A stretch of DNA of 64,000 nt from Escherichia phage vB_EcoM-pEB20 (OP114733); one strand, 5' to 3'. Shown: positions 42,861 to 49,708, counted from the stretch's first letter. Translations and numbers: made by a program. Notes: generated by a model from the letters alone, not told the origin.

Positions 42861-43226
42861 ATGAACTACACCAACTTCGAACGTAAATATGTTTCTAACG
42901 GTATTGCTGGTTCTTCTGAAGTTATTTGCTTATGGAAACACGAAAACGGTACAGTTTGTGAAATCGAACAGTGCATGACTCCTAATTACGTTTATATGCG
43001 ATTTGAAAATGGTATCACGGTTTCAATCACGATGGAAGGTTCAAATTTTAAAATTGCATTAGATGATGATTTCCGTCAGCGTGATTTAGGTACTCATCCT
43101 TGCTGGAATGGTGTTAATCGTAAACTTCTGGTTAAAACTTGGATTCGTCATATCCTGAGTAACCGAGCTAAACCTGAACATCTCGAAGCAATCTTTGATG
43201 TAGTTCTTAACGAATTTGATATCTAA
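42861..43226 (+). CDS. hypothetical protein (121 aa)
   Basis: ORF with GGAGAA RBS and its own early promoter. Confidence 0.55.
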   Translation: MNYTNFERKYVSNGIAGSSEVICLWKHENGTVCEIEQCMTPNYVYMRFENGITVSITMEGSNFKIALDDDFRQRDLGTHPCWNGVNRKLLVKTWIRHILSNRAKPEHLEAIFDVVLNEFDI

Positions 43227-43261: not shown

Positions 43262-43876
43262 ATGTTTAAAGTTAATACTTTTTATAAAATGAATTTTAAA
43301 AATGGGGATATTACTCCACGCCTTAAAAACATGTTCTCATATGACCTTATTGAGCCTTTTGAAGTTTTAGAAGTTACTGATGCCGGCTCAGTTTGTGAAA
43401 TTAGAACTTCTGAAGGTAAAATTTATCAGGCCGGTGTTGGTAAATTCAGTAATTGTTTTACTTTAATATTCTCGACCGATTTAGATGAGCATTTTATTGA
43501 ATGTCCTAACCCTAAGGTCTATGAAGTTCCACATCAAGAAACTAAGAAAAATGGACCGCACGAATATACGAAGGTTGAAACTCCTCACGGCGTGATGTGG
43601 CGACATAACTCTCCTTTTGGAAGTAAAGGAACATTTGCTCAACTGGCTAAGCCCTACGACGATGAAAAATATGTAGTAGTCCTTTTATCTGAACAGGGTA
43701 CTCAAGACCGTGGATGCCAGCGTTCCGGTTTATTGAGTGAACTCGAAGCTCATAACCTAGCACGTGAATTCGTTGAGAAAAATCCTGGTTCTGAAGCTCT
43801 AGTCATGAAAGCAATTACTCAATATATCACTGCTCAACCTGTTGTTCATCCGGTAGAAATTAATTTCATTAAGTAG
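43262..43876 (+). CDS. hypothetical protein (about 204 aa)
   Basis: ATG 43262 follows hairpin and GAGGAAA RBS; ORF-track start 43232 lies inside the hairpin. Confidence 0.55.
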   Translation: MFKVNTFYKMNFKNGDITPRLKNMFSYDLIEPFEVLEVTDAGSVCEIRTSEGKIYQAGVGKFSNCFTLIFSTDLDEHFIECPNPKVYEVPHQETKKNGPHEYTKVETPHGVMWRHNSPFGSKGTFAQLAKPYDDEKYVVVLLSEQGTQDRGCQRSGLLSELEAHNLAREFVEKNPGSEALVMKAITQYITAQPVVHPVEINFIK

Positions 43877-43930: not shown

Positions 43931-44128
43931 ATGAAATTTTTAATAGCACAAACAGTCCAATTAAAAGGTGTTGGAATCCCTGGGATGATTTTTAAAGTTC
44001 TCAACGAATTTAAAACTGCCGCTGGAATTATCAATGAAGCGTATGCTGTTCAATGGGTTGATGGGACTTCTGACATACGTATGGGTAAAGAGTTATCTCC
44101 TATTAAAGGGTTGAAACATGTTGAATAA
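43931..44128 (+). CDS. hypothetical protein (65 aa)
   Basis: ORF-track ORF. Confidence 0.45.
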   Translation: MKFLIAQTVQLKGVGIPGMIFKVLNEFKTAAGIINEAYAVQWVDGTSDIRMGKELSPIKGLKHVE

Positions 44129-44336
44129 ATTAATCCAGAAATTGTTTGGTACGGAAATGATTGAAGTTACTTATCGTGTAACCGACGTTTTTCCATATTA
44201 CGCGGAAAACCGTTTAGAACCATACGTTACGTCAATTAAAATGCCTAAAAATGACAGAAATTTATCTATCGAAGACCGTATACCTGGATACGGACATTGG
44301 GCTGATGTTGAAATTATAAGTGTTAAAGATGTCTGA
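44118..44336 (+). CDS. hypothetical protein (72 aa)
   Basis: ORF-track ORF. Confidence 0.45.
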   Translation: MLNKLIQKLFGTEMIEVTYRVTDVFPYYAENRLEPYVTSIKMPKNDRNLSIEDRIPGYGHWADVEIISVKDV

Positions 44337-44787
44337 ATTAGAAATAAGAAGTAATTTCAAATGGCCGTCATGTGCATTAAGTAACTTTGCTCAATGGCCT
44401 TTTGTTATGGATGGTATTCAATTCGGAGGTCTTGAAGGATTTCTCCAAGGATGTAAGGTGAAAAATGTTGAACAACAAAGACGTATATTTGGGTTGTCTG
44501 GATTGGCTGCACAGCAAGCTGGAAGGTCTTACGCAAGAGCTCAGGACCGTGGGACTCTCTTCTGGTTAGGAGTTCCATTTTCAAGATACTCTGAAGCGTG
44601 GAAAGAATTATACACAAATGCATATTTTGAAGCCGCGATCCAAAACAAGGGGTTTCGTGATGCCTTACAAGCCTCTAAAGGAAAAATTTTGAAGCACAGC
44701 ATGGCCAGCCACCTAACAAAAGATGATACAATACTAACTGAAGCTGAATTTATTGATGTGTTAAACCTATTAAGAGACTCTTTATGA
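44329..44787 (+). CDS. NADAR-domain protein (YbiA/DUF1768-like), candidate ADP-ribose-processing enzyme
   Basis: SNFAQWPFVMDGIQFGGLEGFLQGCK aligns with E. coli YbiA SNFAAWPIKVDGKTWPTSEHYFQAQK; start taken at ATG 44329 (ORF track begins at GTG 44320). Confidence 0.65.
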   Translation: MSELEIRSNFKWPSCALSNFAQWPFVMDGIQFGGLEGFLQGCKVKNVEQQRRIFGLSGLAAQQAGRSYARAQDRGTLFWLGVPFSRYSEAWKELYTNAYFEAAIQNKGFRDALQASKGKILKHSMASHLTKDDTILTEAEFIDVLNLLRDSL

Positions 44788-45608
44788 AGCCTACTATTTT
44801 GACTGATATTGATGGTGTATGTTTAAGCTGGCAATCTGGACTTCCTTATTTTGCCCAAAAATATAATCTTCCATTAGAACATATTTTAAAAATGATTCAG
44901 GACGAAAAATTTATTTCTCCTGGTAAACTATTCAATACCGACGATAACCTCGGTAAACAATTAATAGAAAAATATAATCGCTCTGATTTTATTCGTTACT
45001 TAGCGCCTTATTCGGATGCTCTTCGAGTTATCAATAAACTAAAAGAAGACTATAATTTTGTAGCCGTGACGGCGCTAGGTGATTCAATTGATGCTCGATT
45101 GAATAGACAATTTAATTTGAATGCTTTGTTCCCAGGCGCTTTCTCTGAAGTAATGATGTGTGGTCATGATTCTTCAAAGGAACAATTATTTGAACTAGCT
45201 AAAACAAAATATAACGTGATTTGTTACGTTGACGATTTAGCTCATCACTGTGACCATGCGGCAGAAATTCTTAATGTACCGATTTATTGGTTGGCTCGTG
45301 GTGAGCGTGATGCCATTCCTCGTACTGCACAACGTGTACACACGTGGGATGATATTGAATCTCGTTTGGTTCTGCCTAAGAATAATTCAGATTCAGATCG
45401 TGAAGACCTTTTAAAACGATTGGCGGATTTGCTTAAAGAATCTGGTGCAACAAGTCCAGGTGCATGGCCTAATCAAATTGGTGGCCCCTCGACAACACGT
45501 ACTCCATATACCTGGCGAACCCCAGGACCAACTGATATGCAGCCGTGGTGGACGATTCAAAACTTTCCTTTAGATTCGTCTAAATGGACTTGGTCTATAA
45601 ATTGTTAA
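44784..45608 (+). CDS. HAD-superfamily hydrolase-like protein with Pro/Trp/Thr-rich C-terminal tail
   Basis: 274-aa ORF; N-terminal ILTDIDGV (DxDG motif I); ATGA-coupled to NADAR ORF. Confidence 0.55.
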   Translation: MKPTILTDIDGVCLSWQSGLPYFAQKYNLPLEHILKMIQDEKFISPGKLFNTDDNLGKQLIEKYNRSDFIRYLAPYSDALRVINKLKEDYNFVAVTALGDSIDARLNRQFNLNALFPGAFSEVMMCGHDSSKEQLFELAKTKYNVICYVDDLAHHCDHAAEILNVPIYWLARGERDAIPRTAQRVHTWDDIESRLVLPKNNSDSDREDLLKRLADLLKESGATSPGAWPNQIGGPSTTRTPYTWRTPGPTDMQPWWTIQNFPLDSSKWTWSINC

Positions 45609-45617
45609 GGGATAATT

Positions 45618-45887
45618 ATGTTTGTAGTTCATGATATTACAGATGGCAAAAACACAACGCGTGACTACGGTCACGTTAACATGTTCTTTCGAGACTGGCC
45701 ATTGTTTCGTTCAGTAAAAGACGCAGAAATATTTAAAGAGTGTGTTGAACAAGGGTTCATCTACATTTCAGAATATTATGTTGAAGGACTCGGTAAATGG
45801 ATTACCACTTATCAGAAAACGCTGAAATCGCTTCTAGATGAAGTGGCTTATAATAGAACCGTAACCAAAATTGAGGACATCAAATGA
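45618..45887 (+). CDS. hypothetical protein (89 aa)
   Basis: ORF-track ORF overlapping ligase start. Confidence 0.5.
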   Translation: MFVVHDITDGKNTTRDYGHVNMFFRDWPLFRSVKDAEIFKECVEQGFIYISEYYVEGLGKWITTYQKTLKSLLDEVAYNRTVTKIEDIK

Positions 45888-47377
45888 TTTTAGATATTTT
45901 AAACCAAATAGCTGCGATCGGTTCTACTAAAACAAAACAAGAAATCCTTAAGAAAAATAAGGACAACAAATTACTTGAACGTGTGTATCGTTTAACATAT
46001 GCACGTGGTATCCAGTATTATATTAAGAAATGGCCAGGACCAGGTGAAAGGTCCCAAGCATATGGTCTTCTTGAATTAGATGACATGTTGGATTTTATTG
46101 AGTTCACATTAGCCACTCGTAAACTCACTGGTAATGCTGCAATTAAAGAGCTCATGGGTTATATCGCTGACGGTAAACCTGATGATGTAGAAGTCCTTCG
46201 TCGTGTAATGATGCGCGACCTTGAAGTAGGTGCTTCAGTGTCTATCGCGAATAAGGTGTGGCCTGGACTTATTCAATTGCAACCACAGATGTTAGCATCT
46301 GCATATGACGAGAAATTGATTACTAAAAATATTAAATGGCCTGCATTTGCTCAATTAAAAGCCGATGGTGCTCGTTGTTTCGCTGAAGTTCGCGATGATG
46401 GTGTTCAATTCTTTTCTCGTGCCGGTAATGAATACCATGGTCTTACTCTATTAGCGGATGAACTAATGGAAATGACTAAAGAAGCTCGTGAAAGACACCC
46501 TAATGGGGTTTTAATCGACGGTGAATTAGTTTATCATTCATTCGATATTAAAAAGGCTGTGAGCTCAGGAAATGACCTGTCGTTCTTATTTGGTGATAAT
46601 GAAGAATCCGAAGAAGTACAGGTTGCAGACCGTAGCACTTCAAATGGTTTAGCAAATAAATCTCTTCAAGGGACTATTTCTCCTAAAGAAGCGGAAGGTA
46701 TGGTTCTTCAAGCCTGGGACTATGTTCCTTTAGATGAAGTCTATTCTGACGGCAAAATTAAAGGTCAGAAATACGATGTTCGTTTTGCTGCTCTTGAAAA
46801 TATGGCTGAAGGCTTTAAACGAATTGAGCCAATTGAAAATCAGTTAGTTCGTAATCTTGACGAAGCTAAAGTGGTTTATAAAAAATATGTTGACCAAGGT
46901 CTTGAAGGTATTATCCTTAAAAACCGTGATTCATATTGGGAAAACAAACGTTCTAAGAACCTAATTAAATTTAAAGAAGTTATTGATATCGCTTTAGAAG
47001 TTGTAGGATACTATGAACACTCTAAAGACCCTAACAAATTAGGTGGTGTCGAACTCGTATCACGTTGTCGTCGTATTACAACCGACTGTGGTTCAGGGTT
47101 TAAAGATACAACTCATAAAACAGTTGACGGTGTAAAGGTTCTTATTCCTTTAGACGAGCGTCATGATTTAGACCGTGAACGATTAATGACCGAAGCTCGT
47201 GAAGGTAAATTAATTGGACGTATCGCTGATTGTGAATGTAATGGTTGGGTTCATTCTAAAGGCCGTGAAGGTACTGTAGGTATTTTCCTTCCAATTATTA
47301 AAGGGTTCCGTTTTGATAAAACAGAAGCGGATTCATTTGAAGACGTATTTGGACCGTGGTCCCAGACAGGTTTATAA
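45884..47377 (+). CDS. 30: ATP-dependent DNA ligase
   Basis: 497-aa ORF; adenylation motif KADGARC; position upstream of alt. Confidence 0.9.
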   Translation: MILDILNQIAAIGSTKTKQEILKKNKDNKLLERVYRLTYARGIQYYIKKWPGPGERSQAYGLLELDDMLDFIEFTLATRKLTGNAAIKELMGYIADGKPDDVEVLRRVMMRDLEVGASVSIANKVWPGLIQLQPQMLASAYDEKLITKNIKWPAFAQLKADGARCFAEVRDDGVQFFSRAGNEYHGLTLLADELMEMTKEARERHPNGVLIDGELVYHSFDIKKAVSSGNDLSFLFGDNEESEEVQVADRSTSNGLANKSLQGTISPKEAEGMVLQAWDYVPLDEVYSDGKIKGQKYDVRFAALENMAEGFKRIEPIENQLVRNLDEAKVVYKKYVDQGLEGIILKNRDSYWENKRSKNLIKFKEVIDIALEVVGYYEHSKDPNKLGGVELVSRCRRITTDCGSGFKDTTHKTVDGVKVLIPLDERHDLDRERLMTEAREGKLIGRIADCECNGWVHSKGREGTVGIFLPIIKGFRFDKTEADSFEDVFGPWSQTGL

Positions 47378-47620: not shown

Positions 47621-49708
47621 ATGTCTGAACAATTAAATGAAGTGTTTGAATCTGAAGGCAGTCTTCCTGTCGTCAATTTGAACCCTAAAGCTAAAGTTCC
47701 ACAAGTCTGGAAAATTGGTGATATCGATACAAATATTGTAGTTCGTTTATTCTCTTACCTTTCCGAAGGCGATGCTGTAAAACAAGTTAAACTCGGCGAC
47801 AAATACGCTCATGTTGTTATTATGAGTCTGTCTGAAAAGGGTAATCTCGCTGAATTGAAAAATGGCCTTGGTCCTGCTCCTATTGATGCAATCAACACCA
47901 TTTTCAATACAGTATATGAACAAGTTAAAGCTCTTCGTATGGATGCAGTTCTGTTCCGATTCCCTACCAAGAAATTGAAAGGACGTGGACAACAGCTTCA
48001 AACTCTTCTTGCTCGTTTAGTTTCTACTAAAACTGGTGGTCGTTTTAAAGTATTGTCGGCAATGTATCAATTCACAGGTAAACACACCTATGTGATGATG
48101 GTTCGTAAAAATGCCAACATTGAAGATATTAAAGGCATCCCTAACATTAACACAGAGTTGTACACGAAAGTAGATTCTGATGTTGGCGAAGTTTATGTGA
48201 GTAAAAAGACCGGCGAAACGGTCACCAAAGAAACGGCTATCGCTGGTTCTATTGCTGCTGTAGAAGAAAAACGTAAAGATAAGCCTGTTATTGCTCGTAC
48301 TAAAATTTCTCGTCGTGCTATTGCAGCAAGTCAATCTTTAGAAGCTGACCGACAAGAAGGTGAGTTATTCCAGAAATACGAAAATTCTGCTAAAGAAGTT
48401 AGTGGCCCAGCTACAGCCGAATTACTTCCTGAAGCATATGAAATCGTACTAGCCCAAGCATCATCCACAGCAAAAGGCACTTTAGTTGCTGATATCGAAA
48501 ATAAGATTTATAATCGTATTGATGAATCCTTTAGATTTGCTGATGAAGTTTCTTATGGTAGTGTTATTAAACCAACTTTAGAAAAGTTTGCTAAGAAAAT
48601 TAAAACTGAAAAAACAACATCTGTTAAAGCATTAGCTGCTTTTGTTGAAGCTGCAAATGAAATTGCAGACTCTATTAAAGACGAATGGTTTGAAGATTTT
48701 AGACGTGATAATTTCCAACTGGCCGACGATGTTTTAGCTGAAGTATCTGAAAAAACTTGGAAACAACGTAAATCAGCGTTCTTGTCTAATGTGATGTATA
48801 CTTATGCACGAGAATCGGCTAGAGGCACCTTTAATATAACAATGAATCGGGTCCCTCAACAATACTCTGTTGCTGAAAAACGAGCTATTCGTGAATATGC
48901 CTCTTCTGCGTATACCGATATCAATAATATGTTGTTAGGTCGTTATAAACCAGATTTTTACGATGTTGCAGATGAAGATGAAGTTAAACGCGCTATCGAT
49001 GGTCTTGATTCGGCGTTTTTAAATGGAGACCGTTTACCTGAAGGACTAACGTTATATAGAGCTCAGTCTATCAGAATGCCTATTTACGAAGCAATGGTTA
49101 AAAATAAGGTATTCTACTTCAGAAACTATGTTTCCACTTCACTAGCTCCTATTATTTTCGGTGGGTTTAAAGAGAACGTTGCCCTTGGACTTGCTCCTGA
49201 AGAAGTTCGCAAAGAGCTTAACATTGACAATAATGATGAAGGTGTTACTATTTCTCCTAGCCTGGTGCGTACCGCTATGCATGCGCCAGAACAAATTCGT
49301 GTTAATGTTGGATGGGCTATTGATGGCGCCCATAAAGTTAACGTGATTTATCCGGGACAGTTGAGTAATCACCCTAATGAGCAAGAAATTATTTTGCCTA
49401 GAGGCATTCTCTTGCAGATAAATAAAATTACAGATGCGTCATCTGACACTGGTGCAGGTTTAGAATCCAACCTTAAATTTATTCAAGCTGAAGTCATGTC
49501 CTCGGACCAGTTGGATGAAGCCGTCATTTACGATGGTGATGTTCTCATGGAAACAGGCGAGGTGGTTGCTATGACGGGTGAAATCGAATCAGATGAGCCG
49601 GTATCTTTTGCCTCATTTGTAGAAAAAACTAGTGCACCTAAAGGTTTGAAATTGTTAGCATCTTTAATGGATTTAGAATCAGTTCCGTTTAAATTTGTCC
49701 AAGGATAG
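47621..49708 (+). CDS. alt: Alt-like ADP-ribosyltransferase (packaged head protein)
   Basis: 695-aa ORF at the alt position downstream of ligase; size close to T4 Alt; sequence identity not verified. Confidence 0.7.
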   Translation: MSEQLNEVFESEGSLPVVNLNPKAKVPQVWKIGDIDTNIVVRLFSYLSEGDAVKQVKLGDKYAHVVIMSLSEKGNLAELKNGLGPAPIDAINTIFNTVYEQVKALRMDAVLFRFPTKKLKGRGQQLQTLLARLVSTKTGGRFKVLSAMYQFTGKHTYVMMVRKNANIEDIKGIPNINTELYTKVDSDVGEVYVSKKTGETVTKETAIAGSIAAVEEKRKDKPVIARTKISRRAIAASQSLEADRQEGELFQKYENSAKEVSGPATAELLPEAYEIVLAQASSTAKGTLVADIENKIYNRIDESFRFADEVSYGSVIKPTLEKFAKKIKTEKTTSVKALAAFVEAANEIADSIKDEWFEDFRRDNFQLADDVLAEVSEKTWKQRKSAFLSNVMYTYARESARGTFNITMNRVPQQYSVAEKRAIREYASSAYTDINNMLLGRYKPDFYDVADEDEVKRAIDGLDSAFLNGDRLPEGLTLYRAQSIRMPIYEAMVKNKVFYFRNYVSTSLAPIIFGGFKENVALGLAPEEVRKELNIDNNDEGVTISPSLVRTAMHAPEQIRVNVGWAIDGAHKVNVIYPGQLSNHPNEQEIILPRGILLQINKITDASSDTGAGLESNLKFIQAEVMSSDQLDEAVIYDGDVLMETGEVVAMTGEIESDEPVSFASFVEKTSAPKGLKLLASLMDLESVPFKFVQG

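Follow-up and report, generated by a model that had tools for sequence, protein, structure and literature searches.

The locus raises the question of whether a NADAR-domain gene and the HAD-like hydrolase gene that overlaps its 3' end form a two-enzyme module directed against host defence, as a sequence-only reading had proposed, or whether they are two independent genes of the same operon. The window, i.e. the whole stretch of 64,000 nucleotides of Escherichia phage vB_EcoM-pEB20 (OP114733) that was analysed, comes from an RB69-like T-even phage. Over the 10 kb surrounding the locus, its identity to phages including vB_Eco_F31 and JK45 is 98-99%, and the operon is collinear with those of T4 and RB69 (30.9-30.8-30.7-...-30.4-30.3-30.2-30.1-30(ligase)-alt.1-alt), with all genes discussed here on the plus strand. 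The 152-aa ORF corresponds to T4 gene 30.3, or adfN (44329..44787; PF08010), and the 274-aa ORF to gene 30.2 (44784-45608; HAD motifs and fold). Upstream lies the gene of gp30.4 (72 aa, 44118..44336; phrog_2042, E 2.4e-35), and downstream follow gp30.1 (DUF3045, 45618..45887; Pfam PF11243, E 1.4e-26), the ATP-dependent DNA ligase of gene 30 (45884..47377; NCBIfam ligase families and synteny with T4 and RB69) and alt, which encodes the packaged ADP-ribosyltransferase (47621..49708; Pfam PF03496, ADPrib_exo_Tox, E 2e-28) and equals the RB69 alt in length and position. The pair is therefore located upstream of the DNA ligase and Alt, just as had been described.

An ATGA overlap between the adfN stop and the 30.2 start, also claimed in that reading, is indeed present (44784..44787, read from the sequence). 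The 30.4 stop likewise overlaps the adfN start (ATGTCTGA), and stop/start overlaps are found at the 30.5/30.4, 30.4/30.3 and 30.1/30 junctions. Because overlapping junctions are routine throughout the 30.x cluster, the ATGA overlap is no evidence for functional pairing: it is ordinary operon compaction. A scan for a promoter or terminator that would separate adfN from 30.2 yielded consensus matches at background level only. No DarT toxin gene is found beside the NADAR gene of the window, which is flanked by 30.4 and 30.2, and PADLOC returned no match for the four proteins neighbouring adfN. adfN is thus an orphan NADAR, as published, and not a member of a DarTG1 toxin-antitoxin pair.

The identity of the upstream gene is clear. 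The 152-aa ORF begins at an ATG and carries SNFAQWPFVMDG and GLEGFLQGCK, the stretches in which a YbiA/NADAR-type motif had been recognised, and the assignment holds: the protein matches the Pfam family Phage_30_3 (PF08010) with an E-value of 1.8e-69 (232.3 bits, for a gathering score of 36) over profile positions 1-138 of 138, as well as phrog_420 (E 4.6e-78), and NADAR structures head its Foldseek matches. Its AF2 model (mean pLDDT 93.7, pTM 0.89) adopts the NADAR alpha+beta fold, and its top three matches in the PDB are YbiA (2b3w), PnNADAR of Phytophthora (8bau) and the Geobacter lovleyi NADAR (8bat), all remaining PDB matches having E > 3. Direct sequence searches with the protein gave no match in the PDB, nor in PADLOC and NCBIfam. 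E36, K43 and H123 are all present, and all are invariant in an alignment of 47 diverse homologues. The codons of the catalytic E36 (44434-44436) and K43 (44455-44457) span 44434..44457, as read from the sequence; that of H123 (44695..44697), the residue that stands in for the catalytic Glu/Asp of the last strand and is the hallmark of the gp30.3 subfamily, was placed by the homologue alignment and the published description (PMC11125620). The C-terminal helix (about aa 138-152, 44737..44787) is intact in DNA and protein alignments, and the AF2 model has a helix at 138-151. Altogether, these results show that ORF 44329-44787 is an intact copy of AdfN/gp30.3. Proteins identical to it are already in GenBank. 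An overlapping T4 ORF, 30.3', was considered as a cause of the high adfN conservation and rejected, given an in-frame stop in the window.

The anti-DarT role predicted for the NADAR protein was correct, and it had already been published for T4 gp30.3 (PMC11825919, PMC11125620), so that neither the identity of AdfN nor its anti-DarT activity is new: work of 2024-2025 had established it as a guanine-specific DNA ADP-ribosylglycohydrolase that counters DarTG1. gp30.3 is a named phage NADAR subfamily in which the last-strand Glu/Asp is replaced by His (PMC11125620), and in vitro the T4 protein hydrolyses guanine-ADP-ribose but not thymine-ADP-ribose (PMC11125620). It has since been renamed AdfN, for anti-DarT factor NADAR (Johannesman et al. 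2025, PMC11825919). T4 and T2 phages without AdfN no longer form plaques on DarTG1, and the purified protein frees DarT1-modified DNA of its ADP-ribose; AdfN is guanine-specific and without effect on DarTG2 (PMC11825919). E36A and K43A weaken the function of AdfN-T4, and full activity needs the C-terminal helix; RB69 is DarTG1-sensitive because a T insertion at nucleotide 411 of the gene cuts 15 residues off its AdfN (PMC11825919). In uninfected E. coli, AdfN-T4 does not rescue cells from DarT1 toxicity, and phages T5 and Bas25 were helped only slightly. As the protein does work in RB69, the authors infer that a further T-even factor is required for the full activity of AdfN-T4 (PMC11825919).

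The AdfN of the window is 97% identical to T4 gp30.3 in protein alignment, with five amino-acid differences. It shares with the T4 and T2 proteins the operon position, the length of 152 aa, E36/K43/H123 and the intact C-terminal helix. The phage itself is RB69-like and not a Tequatrovirus; the DNA alignment shows that the inactivating T insertion at gene nucleotide 411 of the RB69 allele is absent from its adfN. Beyond these points it does not differ from the T4 case. Transferred from the 97%-identical T4 protein, guanine-ADP-ribose hydrolysis and protection against DarTG1 would be expected of the window protein as well, and the allele is predicted to be functional. In this scheme, the host DarT1 would ADP-ribosylate guanine in the phage DNA, AdfN would cut the N-glycosidic bond that joins ADP-ribose to guanine in the modified DNA, and the replicable template restored in this way would allow phage growth on DarTG1 hosts. 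Because the allele is full-length and keeps its catalytic residues, unlike that of RB69, we predict from the sequence that vB_EcoM-pEB20 is DarTG1-resistant, unlike RB69 again. Such a prediction would have a small but real practical value for choosing phages against DarTG1-carrying strains.

Two characterised NADAR proteins help to place AdfN. DarG1, the NADAR antitoxin of DarTG1 (G. lovleyi NADAR, PDB 8bat; Schuller et al. 2023, PMC11543638), shares its fold by Foldseek and also its chemistry, de-ADP-ribosylation of guanine in DNA. However, AdfN is an orphan without an adjacent DarT, it lacks the N-terminal extension of DarG1 and its last strand has His where DarG1 has the catalytic Asp; moreover, T4 AdfN, unlike DarG1, shows no antitoxin activity in E. 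coli cells that are not infected. Structurally, E. coli YbiA (PDB 2b3w) matches best (E 1.6e-4, TMq 0.67); it has 18% identity and a Glu in its last strand. In contrast to AdfN, YbiA is a housekeeping NADAR/riboflavin-intermediate N-glycosidase and not an anti-defence protein.

The genes that matter on a DarTG1 host can be read from a published transposon screen of T4 (HIDEN-SEQ, bioRxiv 10.1101/2025.11.20.689424, Extended Data Table 6, sheet S6), in which the DarTG1 data come from one DarTG1 system in one host. Genome-wide, two genes only were significant: 30.3, with a log2FC of -7.25 (padj 0), and 30.4, with a log2FC of -1.79 (padj 0.014). That 30.4 alone was significantly depleted besides 30.3 suggests that gp30.4 (44118-44336) could be the partner of AdfN, that is, the T-even-specific factor that potentiates it. 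Insertions in 30.1 are tolerated (21/21) despite a like overlap with the essential ligase start, therefore polar effects in the 30.x operon are not generally strong. In addition, all T-even loci with a T4-type AdfN contain gp30.4, and it was detected nowhere else, a distribution that fits the activity of AdfN-T4 in RB69 and its poor activity in T5, Bas25 and uninfected cells. Nevertheless, the transposon has stops in all frames and would break the translational coupling of 30.4 to 30.3, and a partial polar effect is for this reason the simpler reading of the 30.4 signal. Identity of gp30.4 between the window and T4-type phages is also only 51-56% (about 54% to T4), against 97% for AdfN, unlike what is expected of a tightly co-evolving pair, and the authors of the screen do not present 30.4 as a hit. 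We therefore regard a partnership with gp30.4 as possible but unlikely; the identity of the potentiating factor could nonetheless matter to specialists.

The product of the overlapping ORF is of another kind. The HAD motif I that the sequence-only reading had recognised in the 274-aa ORF is confirmed: ILTDIDGV lies near the N-terminus of gp30.2, and all four HAD motifs are present in its catalytic core (aa 1-195, 44784..45368), with motif I at D8-x-D10 (44805-44813), motif II at T96, motif III at K132 and motif IV at D150-D151. Across 44 homologues, D8, D10 and K132 are invariant, while conservation of T96, D150 and D151 reaches 90% or more. That motif I has a second Asp indicates a phosphatase and not a dehalogenase. 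The predicted structure is a Rossmannoid HAD fold with a cap, here a C1 helical cap. At the sequence level, the match to Pfam HAD_2 is below threshold (15.5 bits for a gathering score of 23.8, E 0.02), and membership of the HAD superfamily rests on fold and motifs because the family is too divergent for sequence models. The fold itself was assigned from AF2 models, the comparison of gp30.2 with PDB sequences giving only noise-level E-values of 0.4-1. A profile of the gp30.2 family retrieved spurious matches only among PDB sequences, PADLOC and NCBIfam gave no match to gp30.2, and a literature search found no published function for it. From motifs and model together, ORF 44784-45608 encodes gp30.2, which is best described as a C1-capped HAD phosphatase with a predicted dependence on Mg.

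Among characterised proteins, the 5'(3')-deoxyribonucleotidases come closest to gp30.2. In Foldseek, the gp30.2 model aligns with the lowest rmsd to cdN/mdN (about 4.5-4.9 A, TMt 0.60-0.64), with which it shares the HAD core, the four-helix C1 cap, the DxDGV motif and an aromatic residue six residues later (NT5C; PDB 2jao, 1mh9, 2i7d). The resemblance is distant: identity is 13-18%, phmmer connects gp30.2 to 2jao only weakly (E 0.5), and gp30.2 is below the Pfam thresholds of both NT5C and HAD_2, the window protein giving no match at all to NT5C (PF06941). Unlike cdN/mdN, it also has an extra 80 aa made of a helix and a disordered Trp/Pro-rich tail. Seven of the 44 close homologues match NT5C weakly. 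Further links are transitive, through the family profile: searched against 1.84 billion representative proteins, it retrieved 1043 related clusters, most of which represent stand-alone proteins ~200 aa long, and among 83 of the more distant relatives NT5C is the commonest Pfam family (35/83; best E 4e-10), one of them passing the gathering score. The contig of one NT5C-type distant relative, examined for gene context, has a length of 789 bp. Finally, W16, F43 and Y64 of gp30.2, all invariant, align in HMMER to a Phe, a Phe and a Tyr of mouse cdN which we take to form its base-binding pocket. Because gp30.2 has a C1 cap and is akin to these deoxyribonucleotidases, it would be expected to act on a small phosphomonoester, probably a (deoxy)nucleoside monophosphate, and would then serve the management of the phage nucleotide pool. 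As gp30.2 is a near-universal phosphatase of T4-like phages, its substrate could interest specialists.

The position of 30.2 next to the ligase gene suggests a different substrate, namely DNA ends: gp30.2 might be an end-healing 3'-phosphatase that assists the neighbouring ligase, like the HAD phosphatase domain of T4 polynucleotide kinase. The ligase gene lies immediately 3' of 30.2, with or without 30.1 in between, in 68 of 73 very divergent T4-like loci, and one distant relative of gp30.2 weakly matches Pfam HAD_PNKP. However, gene order is conserved across T4-like genomes, which makes adjacency weak evidence, and T-even phages have a Pnk of their own already. HADs with macromolecular substrates usually lack a cap, and gp30.2 carries a large C1 cap; nucleotidases also fit it better than Pnk does. 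A role as a ligase helper is therefore improbable, and a nucleotidase-like phosphatase remains our reading of gp30.2.

This leaves the pairing itself, in which the HAD protein would potentiate AdfN or clear phosphorylated products as the second enzyme of an anti-defence or ADP-ribose-processing module. In its favour are the translational coupling of adfN and 30.2 through the ATGA, their adjacency in T-even phages and in some T4-like phages of Acinetobacter and Aeromonas (36/73 loci), and the requirement of AdfN-T4 for a further T-even factor. Critically, insertions in T4 30.2 were neutral on DarTG1 in the HIDEN-SEQ data (log2FC -0.12, p 0.61, 71 sites), so that 30.2 is not among the two genes significant genome-wide and the proposal is largely refuted there; they were neutral elsewhere too (DarTG2, 0.00; M9 vs LB, -0.10). 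The comparison of genomes points the same way. Of 80 viral loci with an AdfN-like NADAR, 24 have a 30.2 homologue within 4 kb, adjacency being absent in the other 56, and in PG7-type phages the two genes are ~58 kb apart. Most distant T4-like phages have lost the adjacency to the NADAR gene, 30.2 keeping its place beside the ligase gene. When the loci are instead centred on 30.2, the ligase is downstream in 68/73 and a NADAR upstream in 36/73. No NADAR-HAD fusion occurs among 107 + 98 homologues, the sole fusion seen being 30.2-30.1 in one database protein (P0016), and the overlapping junction is generic in the 30.x operon. A joint module is thus highly improbable, and gp30.2 as the AdfN-potentiating factor was rejected on the transposon data and synteny. 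We conclude, with a probability of about 0.85, that adfN and 30.2 are two independent early genes, AdfN acting in counter-defence and gp30.2 as a separate HAD phosphatase. The T4 screen leaves room for a helper role of gp30.2, which may act under other conditions or be redundant with a host phosphatase. Of the original interpretation, the NADAR, anti-DarT and HAD assignments stand; the module idea and the link to alt do not.

As for alt, the notion that AdfN acts chiefly on soluble signals derived from ADP-ribose, or undoes the ADP-ribosylation made by the phage's own Alt/Mod enzymes, and is for that reason encoded near alt, was proposed for phage NADARs on contextual grounds (PMC9503650) and draws on the presence of adfN and alt in one genome region, but it is exceedingly improbable in view of the direct evidence for hydrolysis of guanine-ADPr in DNA and the DarTG1-specific phenotype, the neutrality of alt insertions on DarTG1 (log2FC -0.01, not significant, HIDEN-SEQ) and the location of the NADAR gene elsewhere in the genome in many T4-like phages. 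The proximity that had seemed suggestive in the sequence-only reading, and that had been remarked on earlier by Iyer et al. (PMC9503650), belongs to the gene order conserved among T-even phages.

The last feature of the locus is the C-terminal extension of gp30.2 (aa 196-274, 45369..45608), at the end of which the Pro/Trp/Thr-rich tail is found as it had been quoted. It consists of a helix (~203-221) followed by the Trp/Pro/Thr-rich tail with a TWRTPG motif; residues 228-274 have a pLDDT < 50 and are predicted to be disordered. The tail has strongly diverged from that of T4, only TWRTPG and scattered Trp and Pro residues being kept, and it is absent or different in the T4-like phages of Acinetobacter, Aeromonas and Vibrio, whose proteins have 196-220 aa. 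Many enterobacterial lineages keep an open frame here, in which a P..W.xPG-like motif recurs, and for this reason we consider the tail to be coding and lineage-specific. That gp30.2 would help, through this tail, against some other ADP-ribosylating or nucleotide-based defence is a weaker possibility than the partnership with gp30.4; the disordered tail is probably a lineage-specific docking segment.

Alignment to T4 revealed two islands of high nucleotide identity (86-92%) in the 30.x operon, one at 44321-44920, spanning adfN (the T4 30.3 homologue) and the first ~140 nt of 30.2, and the other at 42861-43226, corresponding to 30.7. Synonymous divergence from T4 is low in both (dS 0.59-0.70), whereas the genes that flank them are only 57-65% identical to T4 at the nucleotide level and are saturated at synonymous sites (dS 1.6 to >3). 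Because islands of high identity and low dS lie amid saturated flanks, the pattern suggests a mosaic ancestry, in which the adfN block would have been exchanged laterally between T-even lineages and protein-level constraint would not be the sole cause of its conservation. Elsewhere in this operon, a 204-aa ORF (43262-43876, + strand) without any Pfam match and assigned to phrog_17531, a family annotated as of unknown function, fills the slot where T4 carries the 96-aa gene 30.6. The interval shows essentially zero alignment to T4 and is a variable cassette within an otherwise conserved operon.

The adfN gene itself appears to have been lost or damaged repeatedly, judging from the database alleles. 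Many are either truncated, to 126, 109 or 89-91 aa, or chimeras with 30.7/30.8-family sequence (truncated and chimeric set: proteins P0102-P0105, P0111-P0116, P0149 and P0200; loci L017, L054, L075 and L082). The version found in PG7-type phages is 136 aa long and stops just short of the C-terminal helix, much as the defective copy of RB69 does. T4 is also annotated with ORF 30.3', described as 'internal translation in a different frame'. This ORF is not conserved: the equivalent frame of the window (44465-44695, +1 frame inside adfN) meets a stop after 34 codons, which argues that 30.3' is probably not a real gene.

Immediately upstream lies gp30.4 (44118-44336, + strand), whose stop codon overlaps the start of adfN (ATGTCTGA). 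A published transposon screen of T4 (HIDEN-SEQ, bioRxiv 10.1101/2025.11.20.689424) showed 30.4 to be the only gene besides 30.3/adfN that is significantly depleted on DarTG1 hosts (log2FC -1.79, padj 0.014), a depletion that the text of that study does not discuss. Either this signal is a polar effect, or gp30.4 is a candidate for the T-even factor that AdfN is reported to require.

A 302-aa metagenomic protein (P0016) carries a gp30.2 HAD core and a gp30.1 (DUF3045) domain in one polypeptide. If the fusion is genuine, it would hint at a functional link between 30.2 and 30.1; the joining could also reflect read-through or an assembly error on the 1.4-kb contig. Across the 30.2-homologue loci (L083-L160), which come from very divergent T4-like phages, the HAD gene 30.2 is almost always followed directly by the DNA ligase gene (68 of 73); gp30.1 intervenes in 23 of 73, all from enterobacterial lineages.
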